Positions 3,944 through 20,075 of a stretch of 64,000 nt of DNA are shown here, piece after piece. The notes under the pieces were generated by a model. It was given only the letters and a program-made list of their open reading frames with translations, did no database searches and was not told the DNA's origin. The stretch's first letter is position 1, and the number at the start of each line of letters is the position of its first letter. The DNA is from Nannocystis bainbridge (GTDB lineage Bacteria > Myxococcota_A > Polyangia > Nannocystales > Nannocystaceae), in NCBI RefSeq assembly GCF_028368995.1, contig NZ_JAQNDL010000001.1, forward strand, positions 4,160,001-4,224,000, given 5' to 3'. Made by a program: the position numbers and the translations under genes.

Positions 3944-4543
3944 GTGGGTCGCCCCGAGCCGCTCCCCGACGAACGCAGCGTGGTCGAGAAGGCCGCCGCC
4001 GGGGACCGCCGCGCCTTCGAGCGGATCTACCGGGCCTACGCGCCGACGCTTTTCTCGTACGTGCTGGTGCCGATGCTCGGCGACCGCGACGACGCCAACG
4101 ACTGCCTGCGCGAGACCTTCCTCTCGGCGTATCGCCACTTGCCCACCTTCGTGTGGCAAGAGGCCGGGGTCTACCCGTGGCTGAAGACGATGGCGAAGAA
4201 CAAGGCGCGCGACCTGCTGCGGGCCTCGGGCCGGCGTCAGCGGCTGCGCGGCGCGTTCGAGGAGCACCTCGGCAACGCCGGCGCGACCGAGCCGAAGAAC
4301 CCCGCCGAGGAGGAGCTGCAGCGCGACGCCCTGCGGGTCCGCATCGAGGCCGTGATGGCCGAGCTGAACCCGCGCTACGCCCTGGTGCTGCGCCTGCGTC
4401 TGCTCGAGGATCGTCCGCGCGAGGAGTGCGCCCAGGCCCTCGATGTGAAGATCGGCACGCTCGACGTGCTCCTCTTCCGCGCGTGCAAAGCCTTCCGGGC
4501 CGCGTGCGAAAAACGCGGCCTGCCCGTCACCGCCGAGTTATGA
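3944..4543 (+). CDS. ECF (sigma-70 group 4) RNA polymerase sigma factor
   Basis: GDRRAFERIY, DANDCLRETFL, WLKTMAKNKARD (region 2); EECAQALDVKIGTLDVLLFRA (region 4). Confidence 0.9.
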   Translation: MGRPEPLPDERSVVEKAAAGDRRAFERIYRAYAPTLFSYVLVPMLGDRDDANDCLRETFLSAYRHLPTFVWQEAGVYPWLKTMAKNKARDLLRASGRRQRLRGAFEEHLGNAGATEPKNPAEEELQRDALRVRIEAVMAELNPRYALVLRLRLLEDRPREECAQALDVKIGTLDVLLFRACKAFRAACEKRGLPVTAEL

Positions 4544-4613
4544 CCCATGGCCTCGCGTAAGCTTTTTCCGGCAGCCCTCGTTCAGCCACAGACCGCGCCT
4601 TCAGGAGGCTCGC

Positions 4614-5180
4614 ATGACCGGGTCTGATCCGTCCGCCAACGCCCCCAAGCCCGAAATCGACCGCGCTGCCGCGCGCGGCGTCCTCGACCCGGCGTGGGAG
4701 GACGAGCTGCGGCGCGGCCAGGAGGCCGAGGGCGAGACCGGGTCGATCGAGCCCGAGCTGGCGATGCTCCGTCTGCTGCGCCACGCCAGAGCGCCCGAGG
4801 CGCTGACGGCCGGCGAGCTCGACAAGTTGTGGTCGGGCGAGCTCGCCCCGGCGCTGACGCCGACGCCGTGGTGGCGTCGCCGCTGGTTGTGGGGCGCCGT
4901 GCCCGCGGTGGCCACCGCGGCGGTCGTGATGGTGGTGATCCGCGGGCCCGAACCGCAGCCCCAGGCCAGCGTGACGGCGGCCGCGGCGCCGATGGAGCCG
5001 GGGCTGCTGCAGCCCGCGACCGCGACCGCGACCGCGGGGCCGAGCACCGCGCAGCTGCTCGCCCAGCAGTTCGCCCAGCTCGAGCACGACGCCCGCCGCG
5101 ACCTCGACGACCGCGTCGACGACGACCGCGGCCTCCTCCGCCAGGACCTCCTGGCCATGTCGCTCGGAGACAAGCCATGA
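4614..5180 (+). CDS. Putative single-pass anti-sigma factor
   Basis: Directly downstream of the ECF gene; WWRRRW followed by one TM helix. Confidence 0.6.
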   Translation: MTGSDPSANAPKPEIDRAAARGVLDPAWEDELRRGQEAEGETGSIEPELAMLRLLRHARAPEALTAGELDKLWSGELAPALTPTPWWRRRWLWGAVPAVATAAVVMVVIRGPEPQPQASVTAAAAPMEPGLLQPATATATAGPSTAQLLAQQFAQLEHDARRDLDDRVDDDRGLLRQDLLAMSLGDKP

Positions 5181-5284
5181 CGCGCCGGATCGCCAGGCCG
5201 CGCAACCGCGACGTCGCGCTCCGACGCGTCGTCCTTCGACATGTCCTTCGAGACATGTCAATCGGAGACAAGCCATGACGCGCC
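5164..5284. repeat. 23-bp direct repeat flanking 14-mer units
   Basis: TCGGAGACAAGCCATGACGCGCC at 5164 and 5262. Confidence 0.85.
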
Positions 5285-5817
5285 ACACGTGGATCGCCAC
5301 GCTCCTCGGCGTCGTCGTCGGCGCAGGCGTGATGCTGGCCGGCCTGGCCCAGGCCGGGCGGCTGGCGCCGGCGCCACGGCCCGAGGTCCTCGTCACCCTC
5401 GCCCAGACCGTCGACGCCGAGCACCGGCGGGTCGACCTGCTGCTCAAGCGGCGCGACTACGCCGGCGCGATCGCGGCGCTCGAGCAGATGCGGACCGTCG
5501 CCTGGCCCGAGGCGGCGGTCGCCGGCGACGCCGCCGCGGTGCTGCGCCACGACGTCTACGGCCGCCTGGTCCGCCTCCGCCTCGACCACCCCGAGGTCGA
5601 CCCGAAGACTCCTGACGCGCTGGCCGAGCTCGTCGGCGAGGGGCTCGGCGCCGACTACAAGGCGATCGCCACCAACGCGTTCACCGCCCGCCTCGTCGGC
5701 CTGCGCGGCGAGATCGCCGAGAAGCAGGGCCGCGACGGCGACGCCCTCGTCGCCTACGAAGAGGCCCTCGACATGAACCGCGCCCTGCTCCACCAGGCCC
5801 TGGGGAGCTCGCCATGA
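5275..5817 (+). CDS. Membrane-anchored or secreted TPR-like protein
   Basis: N-terminal hydrophobic segment; helical repeats DYAGAIAALE and LRGEIAEKQGRDGDALVAYEEAL. Confidence 0.65.
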   Translation: MTRHTWIATLLGVVVGAGVMLAGLAQAGRLAPAPRPEVLVTLAQTVDAEHRRVDLLLKRRDYAGAIAALEQMRTVAWPEAAVAGDAAAVLRHDVYGRLVRLRLDHPEVDPKTPDALAELVGEGLGADYKAIATNAFTARLVGLRGEIAEKQGRDGDALVAYEEALDMNRALLHQALGSSP

Positions 5818-5833
5818 CCGGGGTGTCCGGACC

Positions 5834-5903
5834 TGTCCGTTCAGACCTGTTCTTTCGTACCTTGCGTTTCAGACCTGTCGCAATGCACATGTCCCTGCGA
5901 ACA
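5834..5903. repeat. 14-bp-period tandem array x5
   Basis: TGTCCGTTCAGACC TGTTCTTTCGTACC TTGCGTTTCAGACC TGTCGCAATGCACA TGTCCCTGCGAACA. Confidence 0.75.
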
Positions 5904-6395
5904 CTCTCGCTCGCGCTCGCCGGGCTGGCCCTGACCGCCTGCGCCAAGAAGGCCGACACCGAGTCGGCGCCGCCCGAGACGGCCGCCGACGTCGCCGCGG
6001 GGCCGGAGGACATCGACGCCCTCGAGGCCCAGCTGGCCGCGCGTGAGGACCAGCTGCGGGCGCTCGGGGCCCCTCCGCCGGAGATGCGCATGGAGGCGGC
6101 CAAGCGGGCCGAGCACGAGGATGGCGACGCCCTCGCCGGCGCCGGTGATGCGAAGACGAAGACGGAGGCGCAGACGGCCCACGGCCCGGCGCCGTCGTCC
6201 GCACCGACCCAACCCGGCACCTCGCCCCGCCGCTGCGAGTCGGTCTGCGACATCACGACCTCGATCTGCCAGCTGCGCGACCACATCTGCGACCTCGCGC
6301 CGCGCCACGACGACGAGCCGCGCTACCAGCGGGCGTGCGAGCGCGCGACTACCGACTGCGAATTCGCCACGGAGGCCTGCCATGCGTGCTCGTGA
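5883..6395 (+). CDS. Lipoprotein with C-terminal 8-Cys domain (paralog 1)
   Basis: Lipobox LALTAC; C-x3-C-x6-C-x6-C-x15-C-x6-C-x6-C-x2-C at the C-terminus. Confidence 0.75.
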   Translation: MHMSLRTLSLALAGLALTACAKKADTESAPPETAADVAAGPEDIDALEAQLAAREDQLRALGAPPPEMRMEAAKRAEHEDGDALAGAGDAKTKTEAQTAHGPAPSSAPTQPGTSPRRCESVCDITTSICQLRDHICDLAPRHDDEPRYQRACERATTDCEFATEACHACS

Positions 6396-7134
6396 GCGCA
6401 CCGGCGCCGCGCTGGTGATGCTGGCCACCGCCTGCGCCCCGCAGGACCGCCTCGCCTCGCCGTCTCCACTCGACGCCCCGGCGCCGCAGGCCGCTCCGCA
6501 GGCCGCTCCGCAGGAAGAGGCCGAGCGCGGCAACCAGGACGACGAGCTCGGCCTGGCCGAGTACGAGCGCCTGCTCGCCGACAAGGAGACGCGGCTGCGC
6601 GCCGCCGGCGTGTTGCTGGCCGCGCGCGGGCCGTCGCTCGACGACGCCATCGCCGAGCGAGACCGCGGGCTCGCGCCGCCCGCGGTCGCGCCCGCGGCTC
6701 CATCGGCTCCCGGCGGAGTGATGGGCGGGGCGGTCGGTGAGGGTCGGGTCGCCACGGCCAAGTCCAGGCGGCCGACCAAGGGCGACAGCCCGTCGCCGGA
6801 CGCTTCGGGCAAGCACGAGGCCGCCCCTCCGCCAGCGCCTCCGCCCCGGCCGAAGGACAGCGCCACGCGCGAGAAGAAGGTCCAGTACGACCCGAACCCC
6901 AAGCCGACGACGAGCCAGTCCGGCTACGCCGCCCCGCCGGCCGACGACGAGCCGACGTCAGCGGGTCGTTGCCAGAACATCTGCGATCTGTCTGCTTCGA
7001 CCTGCGAGCTCGAGAGCAAGATCTGCGACCTCGCGGCCAAGCACGCCGACGACCCGCGCTACGGCGACCTGTGCCGCCGCGCCGACGAGGATTGCCGGCA
7101 GGCCGCCGAGGCCTGCCAGCGCTGCTCGCCGTGA
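6382..7134 (+). CDS. Lipoprotein with C-terminal 8-Cys domain (paralog 2)
   Basis: Lipobox-like MLATAC; same Cys spacing as the upstream gene; GGAGG before ATG 6382. Confidence 0.75.
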   Translation: MRARERTGAALVMLATACAPQDRLASPSPLDAPAPQAAPQAAPQEEAERGNQDDELGLAEYERLLADKETRLRAAGVLLAARGPSLDDAIAERDRGLAPPAVAPAAPSAPGGVMGGAVGEGRVATAKSRRPTKGDSPSPDASGKHEAAPPPAPPPRPKDSATREKKVQYDPNPKPTTSQSGYAAPPADDEPTSAGRCQNICDLSASTCELESKICDLAAKHADDPRYGDLCRRADEDCRQAAEACQRCSP

Positions 7135-7168
7135 GCGCGAATGTTGCGACGACGTCCCGCGGACAATG

Positions 7169-9481
7169 TCATGACCCGCTGACGTGCAAGATCTCCGCGA
7201 CCGGTCGGCGCAGCGACGACTGCGTCAATGCCTCCGCGCGTGAGACCCGGAACAGCAGCACCTCGGCCTGCTCGGGCTCGCCCGGGAACAGCCGGGTGAA
7301 GCGCGGGCGGGCCTCTGCGAGCGCCGCCACGGCCGCCTCGCTCAGGCCCTCGCCGCCGTGGCGCACGCGCAGGAACAGGTACGGCAGCGTCGACATCGGG
7401 TAGATCGCCAGCCCCAGCGCGTGGGCGACCAGCCACATGCGCTGCAGCGCCTGGCCGCCGCGGAAGAACTGCTCGGCGCCGATGCGCGGCATCGTCAAGA
7501 GGCCGACCGCCGAGGCCGACGCGATCGCCTTGGCGGCCGACTTGCGCAGGCCCTTGCCGCCGCCGAGGGCGCGTAGCAGCGGCAGCGCGTCCTGCCTTCG
7601 GCACATCGAGAGGCCGGCGCGGTCGGCCGCGCTGAGCTCGAGCGAGTCGATGGTGATGCCGTCGCGGGTGGCCTCGGCCTCCTCGGGGGTCCAGCGGACC
7701 TCGCGGAACATCTCGCGGTTGAGCCGGTCGTCGATGATGCGCTGCTGGTCGCCGATGCCGATCAGGTCGGCGATCTCGGCCAGGTCGGCGTCGCCGGCGA
7801 CGAACTGCAGGCGGGCGCCGGAGATCGAGCAGGTGGCGTCACGCAGCGCGTCATGATGGGCCAGGTCCAGCGGTTCACGGGGCGAGGCTTTGCGGTTGGT
7901 GTTTCGGGCCCCGAGCGCGCCGGCGAGCTCGTCGTGCCAGTGCGGCAGCGCGTCCGGGCCGGGCCCGGCGAGGCGTTCGAACACGGCCGCGAGGTCGGGC
8001 TCGTCGGCGCTGGGGAACACCTGCTGGGCCAGCTCGAGCCCGCGCGCGTGAGCGGCCAGTCGCAGGCTCTCGGCCGCGGCGCCGAGGGCCGCGACGCCGC
8101 CCATGGCGCGGAAGTCGGCCAGGCTCTCGGAGCGGGCGCGCTCGTGGAACAGGAACAGCCGACCGCCGCGCAGCAGCCAGCGCCACGGCTGGGTGTTGCC
8201 GCCCGACGGCGCGCGCGCGGCCAGCTCGACCAGCTCACGCGCCTGCTCGGTGCTCCACGCCAGCGCGGCCGGGCGCCCGTGCGTCCCGCGGTCGGCGGCG
8301 CGCTCCATCGCCTCGGCGGTCCACGCCGGCACGTGCGGCAGCTCGACCGGGCCGTCGGGCGCGGGATCGTTGGGCACGATGCTCTCGATGTCGGCGATGA
8401 AGCGCCCCGAGTAATTCATCTGCCCGAGGTTCATGCGCCGGACGATGTCGGCCGCCGCGCCGCCGCCGTAGACGACGCACGAGCCGAGCTGCGGCCAGGT
8501 CTTGATCGTCGACTCGATCTCGATCATCGACGTGACCATGCGGCTCGACATGGTGCCCTCGCCGATGATCTTGAGCACGTACGGGATCTTCTCCTCGGTC
8601 GAGAGGTTGGCGATCCGCTCGGGCTCGATGTTGCCGACGAGGCCGTGGAAGATCGGCCGCGCCGGCTCGAGGTCGAAGCGCTCGACGTCGATGAGCGCGC
8701 GGTCGCTGGTCTCCATCAGCACCGGGATCTTGTGCAGCCGGGCGGTGACGCGCAGCTTGAGCTTGATGTCGATGCTGTCGCACTCGTCGATCAGCACGTC
8801 GAGCTTGCCGCCGCGGAGGAGGAACGCGCTGAGGTTGTCGTCGTGGACGCCGACCGGGTAGAGCACGACCTTGAGGAACGGGTCGATCTCGGCGATGTCA
8901 CGGGCCGTGATCAGGACCTTGGAGACGCCGAGGTTGTGGACCGAGCTGCGGATGCGATTGAGGTTGGAGAGGTCGAGGCGGTCGAAGTCGGCCAGCCGGA
9001 TCTCGCCGACGCTGCGCTCGAGCGCCATCGTCGTCGCCACCGTCTGACCGACCGACAGGCCGATCACGCCGACGCGCTTGGTCGCCAGCCGCGCCTGCTC
9101 CTCGGGCGTCAGCTTGTACTTGTTGCGGTTGGTCCGCAGCTCGACGAACTCGGCCTCGTCGAGCAGGTGCACCAGGCGTGCGGCCCACGAGTAGTAGACC
9201 CATACGCCGTACTCTTCGGGCGGCGTCTCGCCGAGGTACAGCCGCACCCGCTCGCGCGCAGCGGGGTCGCTGATCCGCTCGCTCGGGTTGCGAGTGCGGA
9301 TCAGGTCGATGAGCTGCTCCTCGAGGGCGTCGTACACCTGCAGGCCAGGCACCTCGTCGAGCAACGTCGACAGCGCGCGCCGGTCCTCGGCGACGGCCAG
9401 GCGGAAGAGCTGAGGTCGCCACGCCTCGCTCTCGTAACGCGCCTCCAGCAGCCTCTTGCCCAGTCGGTCCCCTGTGTCCAC
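7169..9481 (-). CDS. ThiF adenylyltransferase-nitroreductase fusion, Rv1355c/MoeY-like (copy 1)
   Basis: WVYYSW...ELRTNRNKYK, GVIGLSVG, LADFDRLDLSNLNR, DECD, APSGGNTQPW (nitroreductase); GTG 9481 with GGAGAG upstream gives a length close to copy 2. Confidence 0.85.
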   Translation of the reverse strand: MDTGDRLGKRLLEARYESEAWRPQLFRLAVAEDRRALSTLLDEVPGLQVYDALEEQLIDLIRTRNPSERISDPAARERVRLYLGETPPEEYGVWVYYSWAARLVHLLDEAEFVELRTNRNKYKLTPEEQARLATKRVGVIGLSVGQTVATTMALERSVGEIRLADFDRLDLSNLNRIRSSVHNLGVSKVLITARDIAEIDPFLKVVLYPVGVHDDNLSAFLLRGGKLDVLIDECDSIDIKLKLRVTARLHKIPVLMETSDRALIDVERFDLEPARPIFHGLVGNIEPERIANLSTEEKIPYVLKIIGEGTMSSRMVTSMIEIESTIKTWPQLGSCVVYGGGAAADIVRRMNLGQMNYSGRFIADIESIVPNDPAPDGPVELPHVPAWTAEAMERAADRGTHGRPAALAWSTEQARELVELAARAPSGGNTQPWRWLLRGGRLFLFHERARSESLADFRAMGGVAALGAAAESLRLAAHARGLELAQQVFPSADEPDLAAVFERLAGPGPDALPHWHDELAGALGARNTNRKASPREPLDLAHHDALRDATCSISGARLQFVAGDADLAEIADLIGIGDQQRIIDDRLNREMFREVRWTPEEAEATRDGITIDSLELSAADRAGLSMCRRQDALPLLRALGGGKGLRKSAAKAIASASAVGLLTMPRIGAEQFFRGGQALQRMWLVAHALGLAIYPMSTLPYLFLRVRHGGEGLSEAAVAALAEARPRFTRLFPGEPEQAEVLLFRVSRAEALTQSSLRRPVAEILHVSGS

Positions 9482-9675
9482 GTGCTCTCCCGCCGCTGCC
9501 CGTCGCGCCTGCGCGGCCGTTCTCCCGCCATGATAGGCCGGGCTCGTCGCGTCGATCCACCGCAGCACGCGCGCTCGATCACGCTCGTCGGGCGCCACGG
9601 GCGCGGAACCTGGAGCCGCGACCCGCCTGCGGGCGGTAACGCTCCGGGGCGCCGATCTGCCGCGTCCTCGGCACA

Positions 9676-9717
9676 TGTTCTTTACGGCATGTTGTGAAGG
9701 ACATGTTCCAAAAAACA
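9676..9717. repeat. 14-bp-period tandem array x3
   Basis: TGTTCTTTACGGCA TGTTGTGAAGGACA TGTTCCAAAAAACA. Confidence 0.7.
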
Positions 9718-9879
9718 GCTTGACGTTCGCAGCGAGCGCAGCCATGCGCAAATCCCGCGCAAGGCTTCTTTGGGCGTTTTCGCGCACGCTCGGCAGCACC
9801 GGTCCGACGCTCTTGGTCTATACTCTCGCTGGCTCAGCGGGGTCCGCACCGCCGCCGCCACGCCCCGAGAAGCGCGCCC

Positions 9880-10308
9880 ATGTCCGCCCCCACGATGGCC
9901 TACTCGCTCTACCACTCGGTGCTGGTGGCCGTGCACACGAAGGACAACCCGACCGACGAGGAGTGGAGCGGCTACGTCGACTTCGGGCGCAAGCAGATGG
10001 GCAACTACACCAGCTCGCTCGTCATCTCCGAGGGCGGGGGCCCCAACGCGACCCAGCGCGGGGCGATGAACGACCTGCTCGAGGCCAACGGCTTCAAGGG
10101 CAAGGTCTCGGTGGTGACGCTCAACCGGCTCGTCCGCGGCATCGTCACCGCGCTCAGCTGGTTCAACCCGAACGTCAAGGCGTTCACCACCGTGCAGATC
10201 CCCGCGGCCATCGAGTACCTCGAGATCCCCAGGCCCCACCACGAGCGCCTGATGGCCGAGATCAAGCGGCTGCGCGACAAGGTCGGCATCTCGAGCGCGA
10301 TGACCTAG
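9880..10308 (+). CDS. Small STAS/SEC14 (SpoIIAA-like) domain protein
   Basis: PTDEEW, GGGPNATQR, LVRGIVTALSWF, AAIEYL pattern typical of this myxobacterial family. Confidence 0.65.
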   Translation: MSAPTMAYSLYHSVLVAVHTKDNPTDEEWSGYVDFGRKQMGNYTSSLVISEGGGPNATQRGAMNDLLEANGFKGKVSVVTLNRLVRGIVTALSWFNPNVKAFTTVQIPAAIEYLEIPRPHHERLMAEIKRLRDKVGISSAMT

Positions 10309-10489
10309 CGACGCTCCGACGCGTCCCACCTGCCTGTGCCAGTCGCCCTTGCGCGGCCCGGGGGCACGCGTGGGCCGGCCGCCGTCACCGTTCGCGGCTC
10401 GCCTGTGTCACTCGCGTCGTCGCGGCCGAGCACGCGTCAATCGCGTCACTCGCGGCGACGGGCTCACGACGCGCTCGTGCGACGCGGCG

Positions 10490-11260
10490 TCAGGCCGAGT
10501 GTTCGGCCTGGGCGATGCCGCCGGCGGCGTGTTCGGACGGGGCCACCGGGGCGTGCTCGCCGGGTTGCACGGGCACGTGCTCTTCGGTCTCGGGCGACCA
10601 GAAGATCGGGCAGTGCATGCGGAGCGCCTGGCGGAGGCCGAGGATGCGCCACTTGTGCTCCGGCTCGGCGGTGGCGAGGCGGACCGGGTCGAGCAGGATG
10701 ACCTTCGAGAAGTAGCGGGCGTCGGGGTACGAATGCACGCCGAGGCGCGGCTCGGCGGCGAATCCGATGGGAGCCCAGTGGTTCACCACATAGTGGTGCG
10801 AGAGCGCGATCAGCAGGTTGGTCTCGCACAGCGGCGCAGCGGCCACGGCCGTGCGCACCAGCGCATTGCTCAGCTTGGTCCCGCGATACCGCGAATAGGC
10901 CCACAGGCCGCACACCTCGGCGACCCCGTGTTGCCGCCGGCTCTCCAGCAATCGCGCGAGCTGTGACAGTTGCGAGAGCGTGTGCTCGACCGGCAACTTG
11001 GTGCCCGGAAAGCTGAGGTGCAGCCGCAGCCCCCCGACCATCGCCCCCGACTCGTCGCGGGCCACGAAATACACCACGCGGCCGCTCAACAGGTCTTCTT
11101 GATTGACCTCGATGACGGCCGCTTCCGCCGAGAACTCCTCATAGCAAGCCCGCTGGGCCTGCGAGAACTCGTCCACTACAGACGGCTCGAGATGCGGGTT
11201 CACGAGGGAGAGCGAGAGCATGTGTGGTACCACCGTCCATGTGTGGAAAGGGCGCGGCAA
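10490..11260 (-). CDS. GNAT-fold N-acyltransferase-like protein (Rv1356c / N-acyl amino acid synthase-like)
   Basis: YFVARDESGAMVGGLRL, KLPVE, VAEVCGLW, YPDARY; located between two ThiF-nitroreductase genes. Confidence 0.65.
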   Translation of the reverse strand: MPRPFHTWTVVPHMLSLSLVNPHLEPSVVDEFSQAQRACYEEFSAEAAVIEVNQEDLLSGRVVYFVARDESGAMVGGLRLHLSFPGTKLPVEHTLSQLSQLARLLESRRQHGVAEVCGLWAYSRYRGTKLSNALVRTAVAAAPLCETNLLIALSHHYVVNHWAPIGFAAEPRLGVHSYPDARYFSKVILLDPVRLATAEPEHKWRILGLRQALRMHCPIFWSPETEEHVPVQPGEHAPVAPSEHAAGGIAQAEHSA

Positions 11261-11471
11261 CCCTCACAAGCACGCAAAACCCTGTTTGCCTCCCGCCACC
11301 GCATGTTCGGTCGAGAGTACGGGAATCACCTGGCAGTGTCAAGACGCGCTGCTTTCTTGCACATGCAGCAAATGTGTGCTGCGATACACAAATTGCAACG
11401 AGTTTGCGGCCTTTGGGCCCCGCCACGAGGCAAGACGTCGTGTTCTTGTCTCATCGGGACGACAGTGTCGA

Positions 11472-13760
11472 TCAAGGCGATTTCTTGTCGGGAAGCGGCG
11501 CAGAGAACACGTCGTCGACCGGTCTGCGTAAGGTCCGCAAGGGCGCGGGGTCTGCGTAGGAGAGGCGAAACAGCAGGATCTCGACATCGGCGAGCGCGAC
11601 GGTGAAAGCGCGAGTGAAGCGCTCCCGCATCTCGAGGAAACGCTGAATCTCGCGTTTGTCGAAGCCGGCGCCGTGGAACCGCTCGACCCGGGCGAACATA
11701 TCAATCAGCGTGTTGATCGGATGGATGGCGACGCCGAGGGCGCTGGCGGTGAGCCACAGCTGTTGCATCGCCTGGCCCCCGCGGACCAGCGCGGTCGGTG
11801 ATTGGCCGGGAATCGTCAGCAGGCCGACCGCTGCGGATGAGGCTAGGGCCTGGACCGACGACATCATCAGCAAGCGCCCACCATTCGTGTCTCGCAGCAC
11901 CTTGGCGACATCGGTGGAGCGGAGCAGCTGAAACGCCGCGAAGTCCATCGGTGTCACTGCCAGTGCCTCGACGCGAATGCCGTCCTGGGTGTCGTGGGCC
12001 TCGGCCTCCGACCAGCGGATCTGGCGCATCGTGGGGCCGTGCAGCGTCGGGGTCAGCAGCCGCAGTCGTTCGGCCTCACCCAGCAGTTGGCCGAGCTCGC
12101 CGAGCAGGCCGCGGTCCGTACATAGTTGCAGCTTGGCCCCGCTGTCGCGGGCGGCGGCCGACAACGCTTGCACATGCACCGGCGACAGGTGCGCACGGGT
12201 GCCCAGCGCGCGGTTGGTGTTGCGCCGCGGGATCTCCTCGAATAGCGGGTCGTCGGCCGGTCCGCCGGCGCGCAGTGCGAATCGCACCTCTGCGACCAGG
12301 GACGGGTCTTGCTTGCCCGGGAACAGCTGAATCGTGGCCTCGCGACCCTTCACCCCGGCCGCGATCTGCAAATTGGCCAGCGCCCCGCCGATGGCCACCA
12401 GCGCCCAATGACGGCCGATCTCCTCGCGCCCGGCCGCGCGCTCGGTGTCGTGGAACACCCGCAAAACGCTGTCGCCGTACTCGAATCGCCACGGCTGGTC
12501 GTTGCCGTGCGACGGCGCCATGATCGCGTACTGCACCAATTCGCGGACTTCGGTGATGTCGCGGAGTCGACGCGGGTGGCTGAGGTCGGGCAGCGGCGGC
12601 GAGGTGACCTCGGCGAGCTGACCGCTGACATCGATGTAGACGCGGCCCGAGGCGAGCGGCATGCCGAGGGCGAGGCGGCGGACCGCGGTCGTCGTGGTCG
12701 CGCCGCCGAGGGTCACGTCGGAGCCGAGCTGCGAGAAGCCCTTGAGCGTGAGGTTGAGCTCGAGCAGCGACGCGGCCAGGCGGGGCGAGATGGTGTGCAG
12801 GCCGGCGATCTGCAGGATGAGGCCGAGGCGGGCCGGCGGCGGCAGCGTGTTGACCTGGTCGGAGGTCACGTTACCGACGAGGCCGTGGAGGATCGGGCGC
12901 TCGGGCTCGAGGTCGAAGCGTTCGATGTCGAGCATGCCGCGGTCGCTGGTCTCCATCAGCACCGGCAGCCGACGGGCCCGCGCCTCCTCGCGCAGCTTGA
13001 GCTTGATCTGGATGCTGTCGCACTCGTCGATGACGATGTCGGCGCGGTCGCCCGGACCGGTGCCGTCGATGAACTCGCCGATGTTCTCGGGCGTGACGCC
13101 GTCGGTGAACAGGACCAGGTTGGCGTACGGGTTCTGCTCGTAGATCTGGCGCGCCGCGATGATCGCCTTGTTGAGCCCGAGGTGATGCACCGCGCAGCGG
13201 ATGCGGTTCATGTTCGACAGGTCGAGGGTGTCGAAGTCGGCGAGGCGGAGCTCGCCGAACACGCCCTCGAGCGCGAGCGTGACTGCGACCGCGTTGCCGA
13301 CGCTGAGGCCGGCCAGGGCGATCTTGATCTTGCGCAGCCGGATCTGCTCTTCGCTCGTGATCTTGTTGCGGTTGCGATCGGAGCGCAGCTCGATGAACGG
13401 GTCGGGCGGCAGCAGGTGGACCATGCGCCGCGACCACGGATAGAAAGCCCAGCGCCCGTAGTCCTGCGGCGTCTGGCCGGCGAGCGTGCGCTCGATCTCC
13501 TGCGCGACCTCGTCGTCGGTGTAGTTCTTGCTCGGCGTCCGCGAGCGCACGAGGTCCTTCAGCTGGGCCTCGAGCATGTCGTGGATGTACATGACCTCGC
13601 CGTCGTTCATCAGCTCGTCCATCGCCTCGGCTTCGGCGGGGACGGAGCGATCGAAGATCAGCGGGAACCACGACTCGCGCTCGGCGGAGTCGAGCACTTC
13701 ACGCCACGGAGCCAGAGTCTTCGGCAAACGACGCGCAGGCATCGACGGCTCCTCAGTCAA
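11472..13760 (-). CDS. ThiF adenylyltransferase-nitroreductase fusion, Rv1355c/MoeY-like (copy 2)
   Basis: WAFYPWSRR...ELRSDRNRNKIT, LAGLSVG, LADFDTLDLSNMNR, DECD, APSHGNDQPW. Confidence 0.85.
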   Translation of the reverse strand: MTEEPSMPARRLPKTLAPWREVLDSAERESWFPLIFDRSVPAEAEAMDELMNDGEVMYIHDMLEAQLKDLVRSRTPSKNYTDDEVAQEIERTLAGQTPQDYGRWAFYPWSRRMVHLLPPDPFIELRSDRNRNKITSEEQIRLRKIKIALAGLSVGNAVAVTLALEGVFGELRLADFDTLDLSNMNRIRCAVHHLGLNKAIIAARQIYEQNPYANLVLFTDGVTPENIGEFIDGTGPGDRADIVIDECDSIQIKLKLREEARARRLPVLMETSDRGMLDIERFDLEPERPILHGLVGNVTSDQVNTLPPPARLGLILQIAGLHTISPRLAASLLELNLTLKGFSQLGSDVTLGGATTTTAVRRLALGMPLASGRVYIDVSGQLAEVTSPPLPDLSHPRRLRDITEVRELVQYAIMAPSHGNDQPWRFEYGDSVLRVFHDTERAAGREEIGRHWALVAIGGALANLQIAAGVKGREATIQLFPGKQDPSLVAEVRFALRAGGPADDPLFEEIPRRNTNRALGTRAHLSPVHVQALSAAARDSGAKLQLCTDRGLLGELGQLLGEAERLRLLTPTLHGPTMRQIRWSEAEAHDTQDGIRVEALAVTPMDFAAFQLLRSTDVAKVLRDTNGGRLLMMSSVQALASSAAVGLLTIPGQSPTALVRGGQAMQQLWLTASALGVAIHPINTLIDMFARVERFHGAGFDKREIQRFLEMRERFTRAFTVALADVEILLFRLSYADPAPLRTLRRPVDDVFSAPLPDKKSP

Positions 13761-13871
13761 CGCGGCGCGTGGGCTCGGCGGGCAACACTTCGACGATAGC
13801 GCAAGGCGCGCGGAGTCGACAAGGGCGGCGCATTGCCTTCACTTCCCGACGTGTCGTCACGCTTTCGTGAT

Positions 13872-14513
13872 TCATGCGGCGGCGCTCCGCACGGCGGCCA
13901 GCAGCGTCGTCGCGCGCTCGCCGATGGCTGTGAGATCTCCGGCTTGTACGAGCGCCGGGGGGAACAGCGGCGTGGTGAAGCCCACCCCTGCCGCGCCGGC
14001 TTGCAGCACCGGAGCGGCGTTCGCGGCGTCGACCCCGTTGGTCGGCACCAGGTTCAGGGCCGGCATCGGCCCCAGCACCGCGCGCACGAACGCGGCGACG
14101 TCGCCGGGCGCGGGGAACAACTTTTGCGCCGCCGCCCCGGCCGTGTGCGCGCGCCACAGCTCCGTCGGCGTGAAGCAGCCGGGCACCGCCGCCGCCCCGA
14201 GCGCGCGCGCGCAGGCCACCACGCGCTCGTCCAGCACCGGCGACACCAGGAACCGGGCCCCAGCCCGGACCGCCTCGCCGGCGGTCTCAGGGTCCATCAC
14301 CGTGCCCGCGCCGACCGTCAGGCGGGCGTCACGGGCGAACTCGGCGACGAGGCTCATCGCCCCGGGCGTCGTCACCGTGAACTCGAGCACCCGGAAGCCG
14401 GCCTCGACGGCCGCCCACATCGCCGCGGCGGCGTGGTCGCGGCTGGTCGCGCGCATGATGGCGACCGCGCGGTGCTGGGCGAGCGCCGCGGTGAAGGCTG
14501 TCTCCGAGGACAT
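13872..14513 (-). CDS. eda: KDPG/KHG aldolase
   Basis: VAIMR, LEFTVTTP, VGAGTV, GARFLVSP, PGCFTPTE, KLFPA, PTNGV. Confidence 0.9.
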   Translation of the reverse strand: MSSETAFTAALAQHRAVAIMRATSRDHAAAAMWAAVEAGFRVLEFTVTTPGAMSLVAEFARDARLTVGAGTVMDPETAGEAVRAGARFLVSPVLDERVVACARALGAAAVPGCFTPTELWRAHTAGAAAQKLFPAPGDVAAFVRAVLGPMPALNLVPTNGVDAANAAPVLQAGAAGVGFTTPLFPPALVQAGDLTAIGERATTLLAAVRSAAA

Positions 14514-14931: not shown

Positions 14932-15753
14932 TCAGCCGAAGATGGGCAGCATGCGCTCTTCGTAGAGCGAGTCGAGCATCGACTGCATCGTCTGCTCGAC
15001 CCGCTCGTAGACGGTCGGCGCGCGCTCGGCCGCCTCGACCTCGCAGCAGGCGTTGCCGTCGTGCGCCAGCGGGTCGCCGACCTGGAACGTGATCTTCGAC
15101 GGCAGCGGCAGGTAGGGCAGCGCGCAGGTCGGGCCGAGCATCAGGCCCCAGGGGGCGGCGAGGATGATCGGCAGGGAGCTGATCCTCGCCCACTTCTGGG
15201 TCTGCATCAGGCGCGCGAGCCGGTGGCCGCGGGTCAGCACGATCATCGTCTCGTGGCTGCCGGCGCTGACGACCGGGACGATCGGCACACCTGCCCGAAG
15301 AGCCAGGCGCGCGAAGCCCTGGCGCTGGGCCAGGACGATCCGCCGGCGGTCGCGGAACGGGCGCATCGACTCGACGTCGCCGCCCGGGAACACCAGGACC
15401 TTGTGGCCCGCCTCGAGCAGCGAGCGGGCCTGGCCCTTGCGGGCGCGGATGATGCCGACCGACTCGAGCATCTGCGCCACCCGCTTGACGCGGAACAGGA
15501 TGTCGTGGGCGAGCACGAAGACCGGCTGGTCGTAGCCGCGCTGGCGGTAGTACTCGACCAGGAACAGGCCATCGACCGGATTGAGGCCGCCGTTGTGGTT
15601 GGCGACGATCAGCGCCGGACCCTCGGGCATCTTGTCGACCCCGCGCACCTCGCAGCGGTGGTAGCGGGCCAGCATGTTGAAGCCGGCCACCGCCGACCGC
15701 AGCGCCGAACGGCACACGCCTGCGAGAACGCCGGAGGGTGCCGCTGATTCCAC
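14932..15753 (-). CDS. Lysophospholipid/glycerolipid acyltransferase (PlsC-like)
   Basis: IVANHNGG..PVD, VFPGG, GFARLALRAGVPIVPV. Confidence 0.85.
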   Translation of the reverse strand: MESAAPSGVLAGVCRSALRSAVAGFNMLARYHRCEVRGVDKMPEGPALIVANHNGGLNPVDGLFLVEYYRQRGYDQPVFVLAHDILFRVKRVAQMLESVGIIRARKGQARSLLEAGHKVLVFPGGDVESMRPFRDRRRIVLAQRQGFARLALRAGVPIVPVVSAGSHETMIVLTRGHRLARLMQTQKWARISSLPIILAAPWGLMLGPTCALPYLPLPSKITFQVGDPLAHDGNACCEVEAAERAPTVYERVEQTMQSMLDSLYEERMLPIFG

Positions 15754-15830: not shown

Positions 15831-16745
15831 CTAGGCGGATGCTCGAAAAGTGTCATGACCTGCGGCACACGTCGAGCCGCGCTGTGAAACATCCTGCGCA
15901 GGCAAGCGCCGCGCGAAATCAAGCACACGTTCGGTCAACGCCGTCGGTTGCTCCATGAACCCGATGTGTCCGAAATCGGTGAATTCGGCCATTTCGGCGT
16001 GCGCGGGCAGGTTCTGGGCGAAGAAGCGGTAGTGCGCGCGCGGCAAGATCCGCTCCTCGCGCCCCCACACGAAGAGCACGGGCATGTGGAGGCTCGCCAG
16101 CTCGGCTGGCGTGAGCAGCACGGAGGGGGAGATCTCTCCGAGCAGCTGGCGCAGCTGGGGATGGTTGAAGCGCCGGCGGAGGTTGTGCGCGATCGGGTGA
16201 CGCATGAGGGGCGGCACCTTGGCGAACACGTCGTCGACGAATTCGAGCGCCTGGCCGTAGGAGTCGATGCGGAAGCGGTCGAGGAACGCCGCGTGCTGGG
16301 CCGGGGGCAGCGGCGCGCCGCCGGGCGAGACCAGCGCCAGACCGCGGACCATGTGCGGACGGGCGAGCGCGTAGCGGATCGCCACCAGGCCGCCCATCGA
16401 GTTGCCGAGGATGATCGCCGGCTGGTCGAGGACCTTGTCGAGCGTCTCGACCACCGCGTCGAGCAGCACCGTGGGCGCGTCGCCCGACCGCAGCGGCGCC
16501 GAGAAGCCGTGGCCCGGCATGTCGGGGGCGACGACCCGGCGGACGTGCGGCTGGAAGCGCTTGAGCAGCCCGGCGTAACACACCGCGTGGGCGGCGAGCC
16601 CGTGCAGCACGACGATCGGCGGCAGACCGCCGCTGCCCGCCCCGTCCAGCACGTGAATGTCGCCAGCGCCGGTGGCCACCTGGCGGCTCTTCAGGCCGGA
16701 GACGTTGAGGACACGGCGGGCGAGTCGCTCGGGCAGGGTCAGCAT
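15831..16745 (-). CDS. Alpha/beta hydrolase (lipase/esterase)
   Basis: VLHG, APDMPGHGFS, GNSMGG nucleophile elbow, FGHIGFME; start uncertain (16745 or 16793). Confidence 0.85.
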   Translation of the reverse strand: MLTLPERLARRVLNVSGLKSRQVATGAGDIHVLDGAGSGGLPPIVVLHGLAAHAVCYAGLLKRFQPHVRRVVAPDMPGHGFSAPLRSGDAPTVLLDAVVETLDKVLDQPAIILGNSMGGLVAIRYALARPHMVRGLALVSPGGAPLPPAQHAAFLDRFRIDSYGQALEFVDDVFAKVPPLMRHPIAHNLRRRFNHPQLRQLLGEISPSVLLTPAELASLHMPVLFVWGREERILPRAHYRFFAQNLPAHAEMAEFTDFGHIGFMEQPTALTERVLDFARRLPAQDVSQRGSTCAAGHDTFRASA

Positions 16746-17130
16746 GTGTTCAGGAGACTTCAGACCCCGGGGAAATTCCACAAAGCGGCGCATTCAGACC
16801 GTGCTGGGGATCACAGGACCGGCTGCGCACCCCCCTGCGCACGCGCGCAGGCGGTCGCGCTCCGCCCGACCCCGACGCAACGGCCTGTGATCTGTCCCCG
16901 AGGACAGATGAACCATGGATCGGCGAGCGCGCTCGCGACCGCCGCGCAGGGGCCGCCCGCGTCGCCAGGACCGAGAGGCGGTCGTCCCGCCTCGAAGATC
17001 GCGCCGACGAGGAGCAGCCGCGAGCGCAGAGGCGCCGGTCGGCCCTCGCCTTCGAGATGTCTCTTCGGACATGTCCTCCGGGACTGCTTGACGGCCTCGT
17101 CGCCGCCCGCGTAGAACCGGCGCCCGCGGC

Positions 17131-18294
17131 ATGAAGCTCGTCGACGTGACCGAGTTCTACTCCCAGCGCGGCGGCGGGGTGCGCACGCACCTGACGGAGA
17201 AGGCCGCCGCGGCCGCGCGTCGCGGGCACGAGCACCTGGTCTTCGCGCCTGGTCCGCGCCACGCCGCCGACCCGGGCGTGCGCTACATCCCCGGCCCCTC
17301 GCTGCCGTACGACCCGACCTATCACCTGCTGTGGCGGATCGGCGCGGCCCGGCGGATGCTGCGGGCCGAGCGGCCCGACGTGCTCGAGATCCACTCGCCG
17401 TACGTCGCCGCGATCGCGGCGCTGGGGCTGCGGCCGGGCGAGTTCGGCGTGCGCACCTTCGTCTGGCACTCCGACTTCATCGACACCTACCTGCGCGGCG
17501 GGCTCGAGCGGCGCCTCGCGCTGCTGTTCCGCGGCCGCGCCGCGCGGGCCGCAGATCGCGTCGTCGAGCCGCTGTGGGCCCACGTGCGCCGGATCGCCGA
17601 CGCCTGCGCCATGACCGTCGTCGGCTCGCGCTGGCAGCGGCACAAGCTCGAGCAGCACGGCGTCGCCCGCGTCGAGCACATCCCGTTCGGCATCGAGCCC
17701 GGGCGCTTCGCCCCCGAGCGGCGCAGCGAGGCCCGCCGCCAGGAGCTGCTGGCCGGGCGCGCGGGGCCGCTGATCGTCGCCATCGGCAGGTTCGCCGTCG
17801 AGAAGCGCTGGGACGTGGTCGTCGACGCCTACGCCCGGCTCGCCGAGCGCCACCCCGGGGCGGTGCTGGCGGTGTTCGGCGACGGTCCCGAGAGACATGT
17901 CTTCAAGGACAGGCTCGGCGAGCGCGCCGACGTCCGCGTCCTCGGGTTCGAGCGCGACCGCGACCGCCTGGCGGTGACGCTCGCCAGCGGCGACCTGCTG
18001 CTCCACGGCTGCCCGTTCGAGACCTTCGGCCTCGGGGTCGCCGAGGCGATCGCCAGCGGCCTGCCGGTGGTGGTGCCCGACGCCGGCGGCGCGTCCGAGC
18101 AGGCGCCCCCCGAGAGCGCGGCGCAGTACTCCGCCGGAGACGTGGACGCCTGCGTGGCCGCCGCGGAGGCGCTGCTGGCCGTCGACCCGGCCGAGCTGCG
18201 GGCCCGCGCCGCCACGGCGGCCCGCCGGGTCCCCAGCGTCGTCGATCACTTCGACGCCCTGTTCGGCCGCTACCGCGAGCTGCTCGCGCGTTGA
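17131..18294 (+). CDS. GT4 glycosyltransferase
   Basis: FYSQRGGGVRT, IGRFAVEKR, FGDGP, ETFGLGVAEAIASGLPVV. Confidence 0.9.
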   Translation: MKLVDVTEFYSQRGGGVRTHLTEKAAAAARRGHEHLVFAPGPRHAADPGVRYIPGPSLPYDPTYHLLWRIGAARRMLRAERPDVLEIHSPYVAAIAALGLRPGEFGVRTFVWHSDFIDTYLRGGLERRLALLFRGRAARAADRVVEPLWAHVRRIADACAMTVVGSRWQRHKLEQHGVARVEHIPFGIEPGRFAPERRSEARRQELLAGRAGPLIVAIGRFAVEKRWDVVVDAYARLAERHPGAVLAVFGDGPERHVFKDRLGERADVRVLGFERDRDRLAVTLASGDLLLHGCPFETFGLGVAEAIASGLPVVVPDAGGASEQAPPESAAQYSAGDVDACVAAAEALLAVDPAELRARAATAARRVPSVVDHFDALFGRYRELLAR

Positions 18295-18329
18295 TTGCGA
18301 GCGCCCGCCCGGCGTGACAGCATCCGCGC

Positions 18330-19082
18330 GTGCCGGTCCACGTATCGATCCACGACGTCACCCCCGCCTGGGCCGCGGAGGTCGACGCTGCCTTGCATGC
18401 GTGCGCCGAGGTCGGCATCAAGCCTGGCCTTTTGGTCATCCCGAATTATCACGGCGCCTGGCCGCTCGACGACCACCCCGACTACGCCGAGCGCCTGCGC
18501 GGGTGGCAGGCCGCGGGCCACGAGATCTTCCTCCACGGCTACTACCACCTGACCGGCGCCGGTCCGCGCACCGCGGCTGCGACCGGTCACGCGGCGCCTC
18601 GCGGGCTGCGGCGGCTGTGGGCCCAGAAGGTCGTGTCGGGCGGCGAGGCCGAGTTCAGCGACGTGGGCGAGGCCGAGGCGCGTCGCCGCCTCGACGACGG
18701 CGAGGCCGTGCTGCGCCGCGCCGGCCTCGAGCAGCTCGACGGCTTCATCGCCCCCGCCTGGTCGATGCCGCCGTGGATGCACGCCGTCCTGCGCGAACGC
18801 GGCTACCGCTACACCGAAGACCACCTGCACGTGTACGACCCGGCCACGGGCACCCGGCGCGCCAGCCTGGTCCTCAACTACGCCAGCCGCACGCCGGCGC
18901 GGCTGTGGTCGAGCCTCCTTTATTGCCGGCTCGCCCGTCCGGCCCGGCGATTTTTACCCACGCGCGTGGCGATCCACCCGGCCGACATGCGCCACGCCGT
19001 GCTGCGCAAGGAGATCCACGACCTCCTCCGCTGGGCCGTCGGCGACGCCGTCGTGCCCGCGCGCGCCCTCGTCGAGGCCTGA
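18330..19082 (+). CDS. Polysaccharide deacetylase-like protein (DUF2334 type)
   Basis: VSIHDVTP, LHGYYH, EAEF, GFIAPAW, RVAIHP.D. Confidence 0.85.
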   Translation: MPVHVSIHDVTPAWAAEVDAALHACAEVGIKPGLLVIPNYHGAWPLDDHPDYAERLRGWQAAGHEIFLHGYYHLTGAGPRTAAATGHAAPRGLRRLWAQKVVSGGEAEFSDVGEAEARRRLDDGEAVLRRAGLEQLDGFIAPAWSMPPWMHAVLRERGYRYTEDHLHVYDPATGTRRASLVLNYASRTPARLWSSLLYCRLARPARRFLPTRVAIHPADMRHAVLRKEIHDLLRWAVGDAVVPARALVEA

Positions 19083-19085
19083 GCC

Positions 19086-20075
19086 ATGGCCCGGATCAGC
19101 CTCGTCGTGCACGGCCGCGGTCGCGGTCACGCCAGCCGGGCCGTCGCCTGCGCCCACGCCCTGCGCGACGCCGGTCACGCCCTCCACGTGTTCGCCGGCG
19201 GCGACGCGGAACATGCCCTCAAGGACATGTCCGAAGTGACATCCATCCCGATCGTCCGGCCCGGCCTCGGCGCCGCGACGGGGTGGTTGCGGCGGCTGGC
19301 GAGCGACGCCGAGCGGTTCGCCGCCGCGGCGCCGGAGTGCATCGTCAGCGACGGCGATCAGCCCAGCCTCGTGGTCGCGCGCCGGCGCCGGATCGGCAGC
19401 GTCGCCGTCGATCACGGCCTCGCCCTCACCCACGGCCGCCTGCCGATCCGCCCGCCCGCGTGGATGCGGCTGTACGAGCGGCTCAACAACGCCCCGCTGG
19501 CGCTGGGCGGCCGCCTCGTCGCCGTCCATTTCCTGCCGTTCGTGGCCACCGATTCGCGCGTCGCCGTCGCCCGGCCCGACCTGCGCGACGACCTGCGCGG
19601 GCCCGTCACGCGCGAGGGCTTCTTGCTGGCCTACTTCCGCGACGACAACGGCCGCGACGCCCTCGCCCTCGCCCTCGCCGCTGGCGCCGATATCGTCTGC
19701 TTCGGCGAGCGCGACCCGCAGCTGCCCGGCTTGCGGTTTCATCGCTCGGACCGCGCCGGCTTCGCCGACCACCTGCGGCGCTGCGACGGCGTCATCACCT
19801 CGGCCGGCAGCAACGTGCTGGCCGAGTGCGTCATGCTGCGCAAGCCGGCCCTGGCGCTGCACCACCGCGGCGACGCCGAGCAGGCCCTCAACGCCCGGCT
19901 CGCCGAGCACGCCGGCGTCGCGCTCGGGCGCAGCTTCGAGGACCTGCGGGCGCGGGACGTCGGTGAGTTTTTGACCCGGGTGCGCGGCGGTGAGTTCGCC
20001 GCGCCCGACCTCATGACCGCCATGCCGCCGGTGTCCGAGGTGGTCGTCAGCGCCGTCGCGGCGCTCCTGGTATAA
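19086..20075 (+). CDS. GT-B glycosyltransferase (MJ1255/VC2487-like)
   Basis: VHGRGRGHASR, VITSAG..VLAE, EQALNA. Confidence 0.8.
   Translation: MARISLVVHGRGRGHASRAVACAHALRDAGHALHVFAGGDAEHALKDMSEVTSIPIVRPGLGAATGWLRRLASDAERFAAAAPECIVSDGDQPSLVVARRRRIGSVAVDHGLALTHGRLPIRPPAWMRLYERLNNAPLALGGRLVAVHFLPFVATDSRVAVARPDLRDDLRGPVTREGFLLAYFRDDNGRDALALALAAGADIVCFGERDPQLPGLRFHRSDRAGFADHLRRCDGVITSAGSNVLAECVMLRKPALALHHRGDAEQALNARLAEHAGVALGRSFEDLRARDVGEFLTRVRGGEFAAPDLMTAMPPVSEVVVSAVAALLV

Follow-up and report, generated by a model that had tools for sequence, protein, structure and literature searches.

The locus considered here raises a simple question: what is made by two large ThiF-nitroreductase fusion proteins encoded around one acyltransferase gene in a myxobacterium, and why are there two of them? 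It lies in a window of 64,000 nucleotides (nt) from Nannocystis bainbridge (contig NZ_JAQNDL010000001.1, positions 4,160,001 to 4,224,000), with a GC content of about 0.72, in a genome of 11 Mb that is distributed over 5 contigs and 90% complete. Open reading frame (ORF) calls and codon-position GC content defined four genes in the span under study (Table 1): the two fusions, designated A and B, the acyltransferase gene between them (GNAT), and a gene of 142 amino acids (aa) on the opposite strand (small142). An initial annotation had described A and B as ThiF and nitroreductase fusions of about 765 aa; both minus-strand ORFs are real, with matches to the two Pfam families and an end-to-end match to the NCBIfam model NF005901. 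It had also placed a GNAT-like gene between them on the same strand, which was confirmed, albeit with a weak Pfam match (E = 0.0028), but it had missed small142. We conclude that the locus is probably a TrzAS-type N-acyl-oxazolone cluster built on the GNAT and B, in which A is most likely a second, autonomous synthetase sharing the pool of N-acyl amino acids made by the GNAT.

The framework for this reading comes from the Trz pathway of Actinobacteria, described by Kleetz et al. (JBC, December 2025; PMC12856293). Rv1356c (TrzA) N-acylates L-tryptophan from acyl-CoA, and Rv1355c (TrzS) carries out an ATP-dependent cyclisation followed by an O2-dependent desaturation to give N-acyl tryptazolones, a single TrzS performing both steps in vitro. 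In the Mycobacterium smegmatis enzyme, the D217A substitution abolishes cyclase activity and R540A most of the desaturase activity; R540 and Q651 lie near the flavin mononucleotide (FMN) site. Quenching the reaction with acid is reported to destroy the product. TyzACB (PMC10404671) and OxzAB (bioRxiv 10.1101/2020.06.11.147165) are described as following the same two-step logic. An N-acyl amino acid or oxazolone-type cluster, as first proposed for this locus, is therefore retained, but the pathway type can no longer be called undescribed, and the remark that the product of the Rv1355c clade was not known to be established has been overtaken, for the actinobacterial members, by the assignment of Rv1355c as TrzS.

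A and B are members of the TrzS family over their whole length. Against the NCBIfam equivalog NF005901 ('Rv1355c family protein', cut-off 476 bits), A scored 793.3 bits and B 717.7 bits, the alignments spanning model positions 6-720 of 722 and 6-718, respectively, and the genome contains exactly these two copies above the cut-off. A third match in the genome (L003/L123) was rejected as a synthetase, because it is an isolated Acg-like oxidase that lacks a ThiF domain. Pfam ThiF and Nitroreductase domains were found in both proteins, and the model for Acg-family FMN oxidoreductases matched their C-terminal halves with E-values of 1e-37 (A) and 2e-47 (B), both below the cut-off of that model. The N-terminal W-x-YY-x-W ... 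ELR-x-x-RN stretch singled out in the initial annotation is present in both. A and B share 40% identity over 756 aligned residues, with 32.5% in the N-domain, 49.0% in the ThiF domain and 36.3% in the C-terminal flavin-oxidase half. The ThiF halves are thus more alike than the C-terminal halves, as had been noted; this gradient recurs in every family pair compared, and so gives no sign that A or B is specialised.

Conserved columns were defined as those at least 95% conserved across 81 sequences from outside the genus; A kept 84 of these 86 columns, as did B. The motifs retained in both include the G-L-S-V-G loop, D-x3-D-x2-D (IDECDS), APS-x-GN-x-QPW and R-x-TNR. All three acids of the ThiF D-x3-D-x2-D motif, candidates for the counterpart of D217, are present (LDVLIDECDS in A, ADIVIDECDS in B). 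Every arginine of the oxidase half that is at least 95% conserved is kept, leaving several candidates for R540, and in that half glutamine exceeds 60% conservation only in the column of the QPW motif. As A and B keep the conserved residues, neither resembles a pseudoenzyme.

The ThiF-family domain also admits a different function, in which the fusions would be adenylyltransferases for the sulfur carriers MoaD or ThiS in molybdopterin or thiamin synthesis (the old name is MoeY), or would act on a peptide or tRNA. Weak matches to the MoeB, ThiF and TcdA models do exist. However, the best scores of the MoeB, ThiF, MoeZ and TcdA models on A and B were 17-70 bits against cut-offs of 150-650, none of which was reached, and the characterised member of the family is reported to act on free N-acyl tryptophan (PMC12856293). 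We consider this function hardly credible; the earlier warning that these genes are prone to misannotation as molybdopterin biosynthesis was well founded.

An N-acyltransferase of the TrzA/TyzA/OxzA kind adjoins B, 250 nt downstream of it, and A has no acyltransferase of its own. General models captured this GNAT poorly: the match to Pfam Acetyltransf_1 was below the cut-off, the match to FeeM was weak and NCBIfam gave none. A word-indexed search returned only 8 close relatives. An exhaustive search with a narrow profile made from these 8 detected 398 proteins with E-values of 1e-3 or lower, 127 of which reached 1e-10. Among 124 aligned family members from the representative library, Acetyltransf_1 was recognised in 34 and FeeM in 4, and one member was fused with an Rv1355c-family domain. 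The AlphaFold model of the GNAT (predicted local distance difference test, pLDDT, 63) had TofI and BjaI, which are acyl-homoserine lactone (AHL) synthases, and FeeM as its nearest solved chains, amid generic GNATs. AHL synthases and FeeM are also the nearest folds reported for TyzA (PMC10404671), which supports the assignment.

The association between this GNAT family and TrzS-like genes extends well beyond the window. We examined 95 loci, 15 from the genomes of relatives and the best 80 of 559 relatives in genome contigs, and in 67 of them a GNAT-family ORF either adjoined the TrzS-like gene or formed one ORF with it. The commonest arrangement was that of the window, with the GNAT downstream on the same strand (47 of 95, mostly Bacteroidota); the GNAT was upstream on the same strand in 11 loci, on the opposite strand in 3 and fused to TrzS in one ORF in 6. 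Another 20 loci had no GNAT although 2 kb or more of sequence was available on either side of the gene, and 8 without one were too short to judge. The 11 named Myxococcota loci of the 80-locus set had no GNAT. The narrow profile alone recovered 50 of the 55 GNAT ORFs of the 80 outside loci, so the link to TrzS is not circular. The six fusions (L073, L103, L105, L107, L114 and L116) come from metagenome-assembled genomes (MAGs) of Actinomycetes and Acidimicrobiia, and all three activities are predicted in one chain.

The family also reaches the Trz systems. In Rhodococcus koreensis and R. tukisamuensis, a GNAT-family ORF lies directly upstream of TrzS and overlaps it, in the position of trzA and as described for trzAS of RHA1 (PMC12856293). 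The narrow profile matched these two ORFs with E-values of 5e-11 and 4e-07, and pairwise alignment of the GNAT from the window with the R. koreensis ORF gave 24% identity (E = 9e-14). From their position and the description given in PMC12856293, we infer true trzAS orthology for the two Rhodococcus gene pairs.

A second TrzA-type GNAT was present in the genome of the window (G000, contig 2, 2511827-2512360, plus strand; L122: 8666-9442), matching the family profile with an E-value of 1e-53. It has no TrzS nearby; it is preceded by a sigma-54 activator and a 493-aa ORF, and genes for an alpha/beta hydrolase and a radical SAM protein come after it. Of the 11 genomes of the genus, 6 have this gene, which may belong to a separate N-acyl amino acid pathway. 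It was rejected as the partner of A, being missing from G006 and G009, which carry A (both about 83-84% complete).

Family membership, conserved residues and coupling across phyla identify B and the GNAT as a TrzAS-type oxazolone pair, with the chemistry inferred from characterised relatives. The GNAT would N-acylate an amino acid, aromatic in all characterised relatives, using acyl-CoA or acyl-ACP (acyl carrier protein). The ThiF-like domain of B would adenylate the carboxylate, allowing the amide oxygen to close the oxazolone ring, and its FMN-dependent oxidase (FDO) domain, of the Acg-type nitroreductase fold, would desaturate the C-alpha/C-beta bond with O2. The product would be a 2-alkyl-4-ylidene-oxazol-5(4H)-one. 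A would act as a second synthetase with another acyl-chain or amino acid preference, fed by the N-acyl amino acids of the single GNAT, and most likely widens or shifts the range of products drawn from this common pool.

To place A and B, a tree was built from 58 of 98 full-length TrzS-like sequences (IQ-TREE quick search, LG+G4, with support from the SH-aLRT, the Shimodaira-Hasegawa-like approximate likelihood ratio test). Both copies of four near-identical loci of the same genus and three quarters of the Bacteroidota rows were dropped, and the Rhodococcus enzymes served as stand-ins for TrzS, with no M. tuberculosis, M. smegmatis, RHA1 or OxzB sequence included. The B copies of the genus formed a clade of 9 rows (support 100) with the single copies of three genomes from a second genus in the family, and a GNAT was found nearby in all nine. 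This clade shares a 23-row half of the tree (support 96) with the Rhodococcus/Actinomycetes clade; the Rhodococcus rows form their own clade of 8 (support 100), to which the clade of B is a neighbour, and A lies in the other half. The A copies of the genus, that of the window included, formed a clade of 4 rows (support 96). Five named Sorangium strains, each with a single TrzS, make up its sister group, giving a clade of 9 rows (support 99). The next branch out is a Bacteroidota clade coupled to GNATs. A tree constrained to unite A and B, a group named after seeing the tree, was worse by 161 log-likelihood units (approximately unbiased, AU, test, p = 0.0002). Judged from these sequences, A and B are two old lineages and no recent duplicates; the term 'paralogs', in the sense of a local duplication, is not supported.

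The distribution of the two lineages was followed in 61 genomes, that of the window and 60 relatives, with a match defined by E <= 1e-50. A TrzS-like match was found in 19. Two full copies, 4-6 kb apart, occurred only in the genus of the window (G000, G001, G003, G005, G006, G009 and G010), and the block of B, GNAT, small142 and A was kept in 7 genomes of this genus, down to 51-59% protein identity. In G007, B is accompanied by an A orthologue in two overlapping frames (L029: 11256-12530 and 12409-13566, plus strand), reflecting either a frameshift or a fault of the assembly. In G002, a full copy is accompanied by a partial one on another contig. G008, which is 82% complete and highly fragmented, has B only, and the flanking sigma-factor block has moved up to small142; no TrzS-like copy was found in G004 (64% complete). 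Each of the five named, complete Sorangium genomes has one TrzS of the A lineage. A further instance of two TrzS-like copies side by side was seen in a Myxococcota MAG (L104), where a full-length gene (5839-8124, plus strand) faces a shorter convergent one (8131-9369, minus strand; E = 3e-92).

The adjacency of A and B and their conservation together in 7 genomes could also mean that they act only jointly, either by pairing of their ThiF domains in a heterodimer or sequentially on one substrate. ThiF/MoeB-type domains usually dimerise, which would suit such an arrangement. Each protein, however, has both catalytic domains and the 84 conserved residues. Together with the report that a lone TrzS cyclises and desaturates in vitro (PMC12856293), this means that obligatory cooperation is not required. 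B and the GNAT also occur without A in G008 and, outside the genus, in G011, G027 and G036, the A lineage occurs without B in the 5 Sorangium genomes, and within the block small142, on the opposite strand, divides the two synthetases into separate transcription units. Strictly joint action thus appears very improbable. The absence of A from its syntenic position in G008 and its two reading frames in G007 could instead be signs that A is redundant or decaying and has no function of its own. Against this, A is full length and keeps its conserved residues, and it is retained with an open frame of about 770 aa at 51% identity; moreover, the break in G007 may be an assembly error (this assembly has 2 contigs), and the completeness and fragmentation of G008 apply to its missing A. 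Decay of A is, in our view, improbable.

Several observations nevertheless weigh against the reading of the locus as a TrzAS-type cluster. A and B both fall outside the Rhodococcus clade that stands in for TrzS, with 37-38% identity to those enzymes. The GNAT lies downstream of B behind a 250-nt spacer, unlike the trzAS gene order. The identity of the amino acid and of the acyl chain cannot be read from the sequence. The absence of A in place in G008, together with its two-frame state in G007, indicates that B and the GNAT can do without A. No TrzA-family gene was detected at E <= 1e-5 in any of the five named Sorangium genomes, with the profile that finds two in the genome of the window, so the A lineage may not use the N-acyl amino acids of such an enzyme at all; A, whose closest relatives have no GNAT, may serve another substrate.

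These Sorangium data speak for assigning A to a separate pathway, supplied by an enzyme other than the GNAT, in which case A would be a mere neighbour of B and the GNAT in this genus. The Sorangium loci have their own surroundings, with a small142 homologue abutting the TrzS start and a large protein without Pfam family encoded convergently downstream, and the 20 well-flanked loci without a GNAT fit the same view. On the other hand, that large protein was not found in the genome of the window (one protein query; genome 90% complete) and no other candidate supplying a substrate was recognised next to A. Furthermore, in 7 genomes that span deep divergence of the genus, A has kept its place next to B and the GNAT, and the Bacteroidota clade, its sister group, is GNAT-coupled. 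A separate pathway for A is unlikely, and we favour A as a second synthetase on the GNAT pool.

The fourth gene of the block, small142, had no Pfam or NCBIfam match. Its structural model (pLDDT 91.4) resembled 2q3l (DUF3478, SpoIIAA-like), 4xs5 (STAS) and 1tid (SpoIIAA) as top PDB hits, with template modelling (TM) scores of 0.54-0.69 and Foldseek E-values from 4e-4 to 2e-3, and the protein atlas gave a sub-threshold lead to PF11964 (score 0.88; the family is on 29% of members). The gene is single-copy in the genome. When the window was added to the 95 loci, 17 of these 96 had a member of its family next to the TrzS-like gene, all of them myxobacterial: ten loci of the genus of the window, the five Sorangium loci without a GNAT, one Polyangiaceae MAG and one other MAG. 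In the Sorangium loci, the homologue that abuts the TrzS start is on the same strand. The recurrence of small142 by both lineages in differing arrangements argues for a functional tie. On this genomic evidence, small142 appears as a myxobacteria-specific companion of TrzS-like synthetases and a candidate accessory component, which may be a ligand-binding or regulatory subunit. A complex prediction of A with small142 pointed neither way (score 0.00, mark 0.32).

A different companion was seen in 12 GNAT-less TrzS loci from Myxococcota and Acidobacteriota, which have in common a large neighbour protein of 454-882 aa (Table 1). No Pfam family was found in it, save a PilZ domain in one member, and the protein atlas gave only sub-threshold leads (PilZ 0.87, Acetyltransf_1 0.85). 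A profile-profile comparison showed no relationship between it and the GNAT family (probability 0.04). The PilZ domain of this one member recalls the cyclic di-GMP genes described as flanking trzAS in M. tuberculosis (PMC12856293).

Taken together, these companions allow a more far-reaching proposal, in which the myxobacterial systems include a third component of STAS fold, the A lineage uses a substrate that is not supplied by TrzA, and the genus has merged two independent heterocycle pathways. Here small142 would bind, carry or sense the product, perhaps with an input to the extracytoplasmic function (ECF) sigma factor module next to A. We hold this combined proposal to be rather unlikely, but if true it would provide a first handle on the purpose of oxazolones.

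The coordinates of the features are collected in Table 1. The ORF of B reaches a TTG at 13760, but alignment of orthologues indicates the ATG at 13742 as the likely start. For the GNAT, the ATG at 11221 was chosen from the alignment of the 8 close relatives. The ORF of A is open to 9799, but conservation among orthologues and the coding signal start only at the GTG at 9481. As small142 lies on the opposite strand between A and the GNAT, A is a transcription unit apart from B and the GNAT.

Table 1. Features of the locus and its surroundings in the window, and TrzS-like genes of other loci that have the large neighbour protein.
Sequence	Coordinates	Strand	Feature	Remarks
Window	3944-7134	+	ECF sigma factor, then four ORFs without clear family	one ORF with TPR-like hits
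Window	7169..9481	-	A, TrzS-like synthetase, 770 aa	three-part architecture as in B; other old lineage
Window	9482..9879	.	A-small142 divergent intergenic region, 398 nt	presumed promoters of both genes; coding signal falls
Window	9880..10308	+	small142, predicted STAS/SpoIIAA-like fold, 142 aa	GC at third codon positions (GC3) about 1.0; convergent with GNAT, divergent from A
Window	10490..11221	-	GNAT, predicted TrzA/TyzA/OxzA-type N-acyl amino acid synthase, 243 aa	FeeM / AHL-synthase-like fold
Window	11222..11471	-	B-GNAT spacer, 250 nt	within the lowest-GC kilobase of the region (0.63)
Window	11472..13742	-	B, TrzS-like synthetase, 756 aa	N-domain, ThiF-like ATP-dependent cyclase and FMN-dependent oxidase
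Window	14932-15753	-	PlsC-type acyltransferase	weakly matched by OlsF and GlsA (ornithine/glycine-lipid O-acyltransferases)
Window	15831-16793	-	alpha/beta hydrolase	weak OlsI match; beside the PlsC-type acyltransferase
Window	17131-20075	+	two glycosyltransferases around a DUF2334 gene	polysaccharide-type trio just past the hydrolase
L046	8840-11029	-	TrzS-like gene with large neighbour	
L069	3356-6001	+	TrzS-like gene with large neighbour	
L083	3600-5939	+	TrzS-like gene with large neighbour	
9 further loci			TrzS-like gene with large neighbour	

Regulatory signals were sought across the locus. A scan of 6500-14500 gave no Rfam match at E <= 0.1, and the scan for sigma-70-like promoters found none in the locus, a search that may fail where the host uses other promoter types. 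Four terminator-like sites were found against 2.1 expected, none of them at a gene end of consequence and none in the B-GNAT spacer. Contigs assembled from RNA libraries of root and soil metagenomes (4 runs, 2 studies), 90-99% alike, cover parts of all four genes, and the B-GNAT spacer is likewise covered by such contigs from relatives. As assembled metagenome contigs may include DNA carry-over, and uncovered parts carry no meaning, they give a weak hint that the locus is expressed in relatives and that B and the GNAT are co-transcribed.

Dips in GC content, to 0.63 at 11001-12000 and 0.67 at 13001-14000 against about 0.72 around them, coincide with the B-GNAT spacer and the ends of B. These dips and the rarity of the GNAT-coupled B clade in Myxococcota may hint at a horizontal origin of the B-GNAT pair.

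On the side of A, the ECF sigma factor block adjoins the locus in every genome of the genus that was examined, including G008, and is not found there in other genera. Beyond B lie genes for a KDPG aldolase (2-keto-3-deoxy-6-phosphogluconate aldolase), the PlsC-type acyltransferase and the alpha/beta hydrolase. We do not count these three in the cluster: they are unlinked in distant genomes of the genus, and about 3 kb is inserted between the block and these genes in three. The acyltransferase and the hydrolase may form an aminolipid pair.

Oxazolone natural products were tied to genes only in 2021-2025, and the systems characterised so far are OxzAB of Pseudomonadota and the Tyz and Trz systems of mycolic-acid Actinomycetota. 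In the literature searched, neither a cluster of the TrzAS/OxzAB type nor a product of one was reported for myxobacteria, although the taxon supplement of PMC12856293 may list Myxococcota. What is new here is a TrzAS-type cluster in a myxobacterium, with synthetases of two old lineages and a STAS-like companion; the pathway type itself is known. The locus carries the pathway over to a group heavily mined for natural products, in which a MoeY-like molybdopterin annotation of A and B would hide a biosynthetic cluster. With two deeply diverged synthetases by a single acyltransferase, it offers a natural experiment on whether the synthetase or the acyltransferase controls the product. The STAS-like companion found only in myxobacteria and the A-lineage enzymes without a TrzA-type partner are leads to new components and substrates, in a field where the authors of the TrzAS study name the physiological role of oxazolones as an open question (PMC12856293).

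Compared with known systems, the solved folds nearest to the GNAT model are FeeM, BjaI and TofI (2g0b, 5w8a and 3p2h); at 13-20% identity and TM scores of 0.46-0.67, for a model of pLDDT 63, this is a resemblance of fold and not family membership. The locus shares with OxzA/OxzB of Pseudoalteromonas rubra, described as making tyrazolones and phenazolones (bioRxiv 10.1101/2020.06.11.147165), the combination of an N-acyltransferase and a ThiF-nitroreductase didomain protein, but OxzB is reported to belong to another sequence subcluster than TrzS for both the ThiF and the oxidase parts (PMC12856293, PMC10404671). With TyzA/TyzB/TyzC of M. tuberculosis, it would share the chemistry and an acyltransferase of FeeM / AHL-synthase-like fold; unlike the fused proteins here, TyzB (ThiF) and TyzC (oxidase) are separate, and the order of their steps is described as not obligate (PMC10404671). 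The likeness to TrzA/TrzS of M. tuberculosis, M. smegmatis and Rhodococcus jostii RHA1 (PMC12856293) extends to the three-part synthetase of one NCBIfam equivalog family, the partner acyltransferase of one family and the conserved ATP-binding, acidic ThiF and FDO motifs. The locus differs from these systems in its myxobacterial host, in the separate clades and 37-38% identity that set its synthetases apart from the Rhodococcus enzymes, and in the position of the GNAT downstream of B, trzA being described as upstream of trzS in an overlapping operon (PMC12856293). Where TrzA is paired with one synthetase, the block described here includes two of different old lineages, together with a STAS-like gene.

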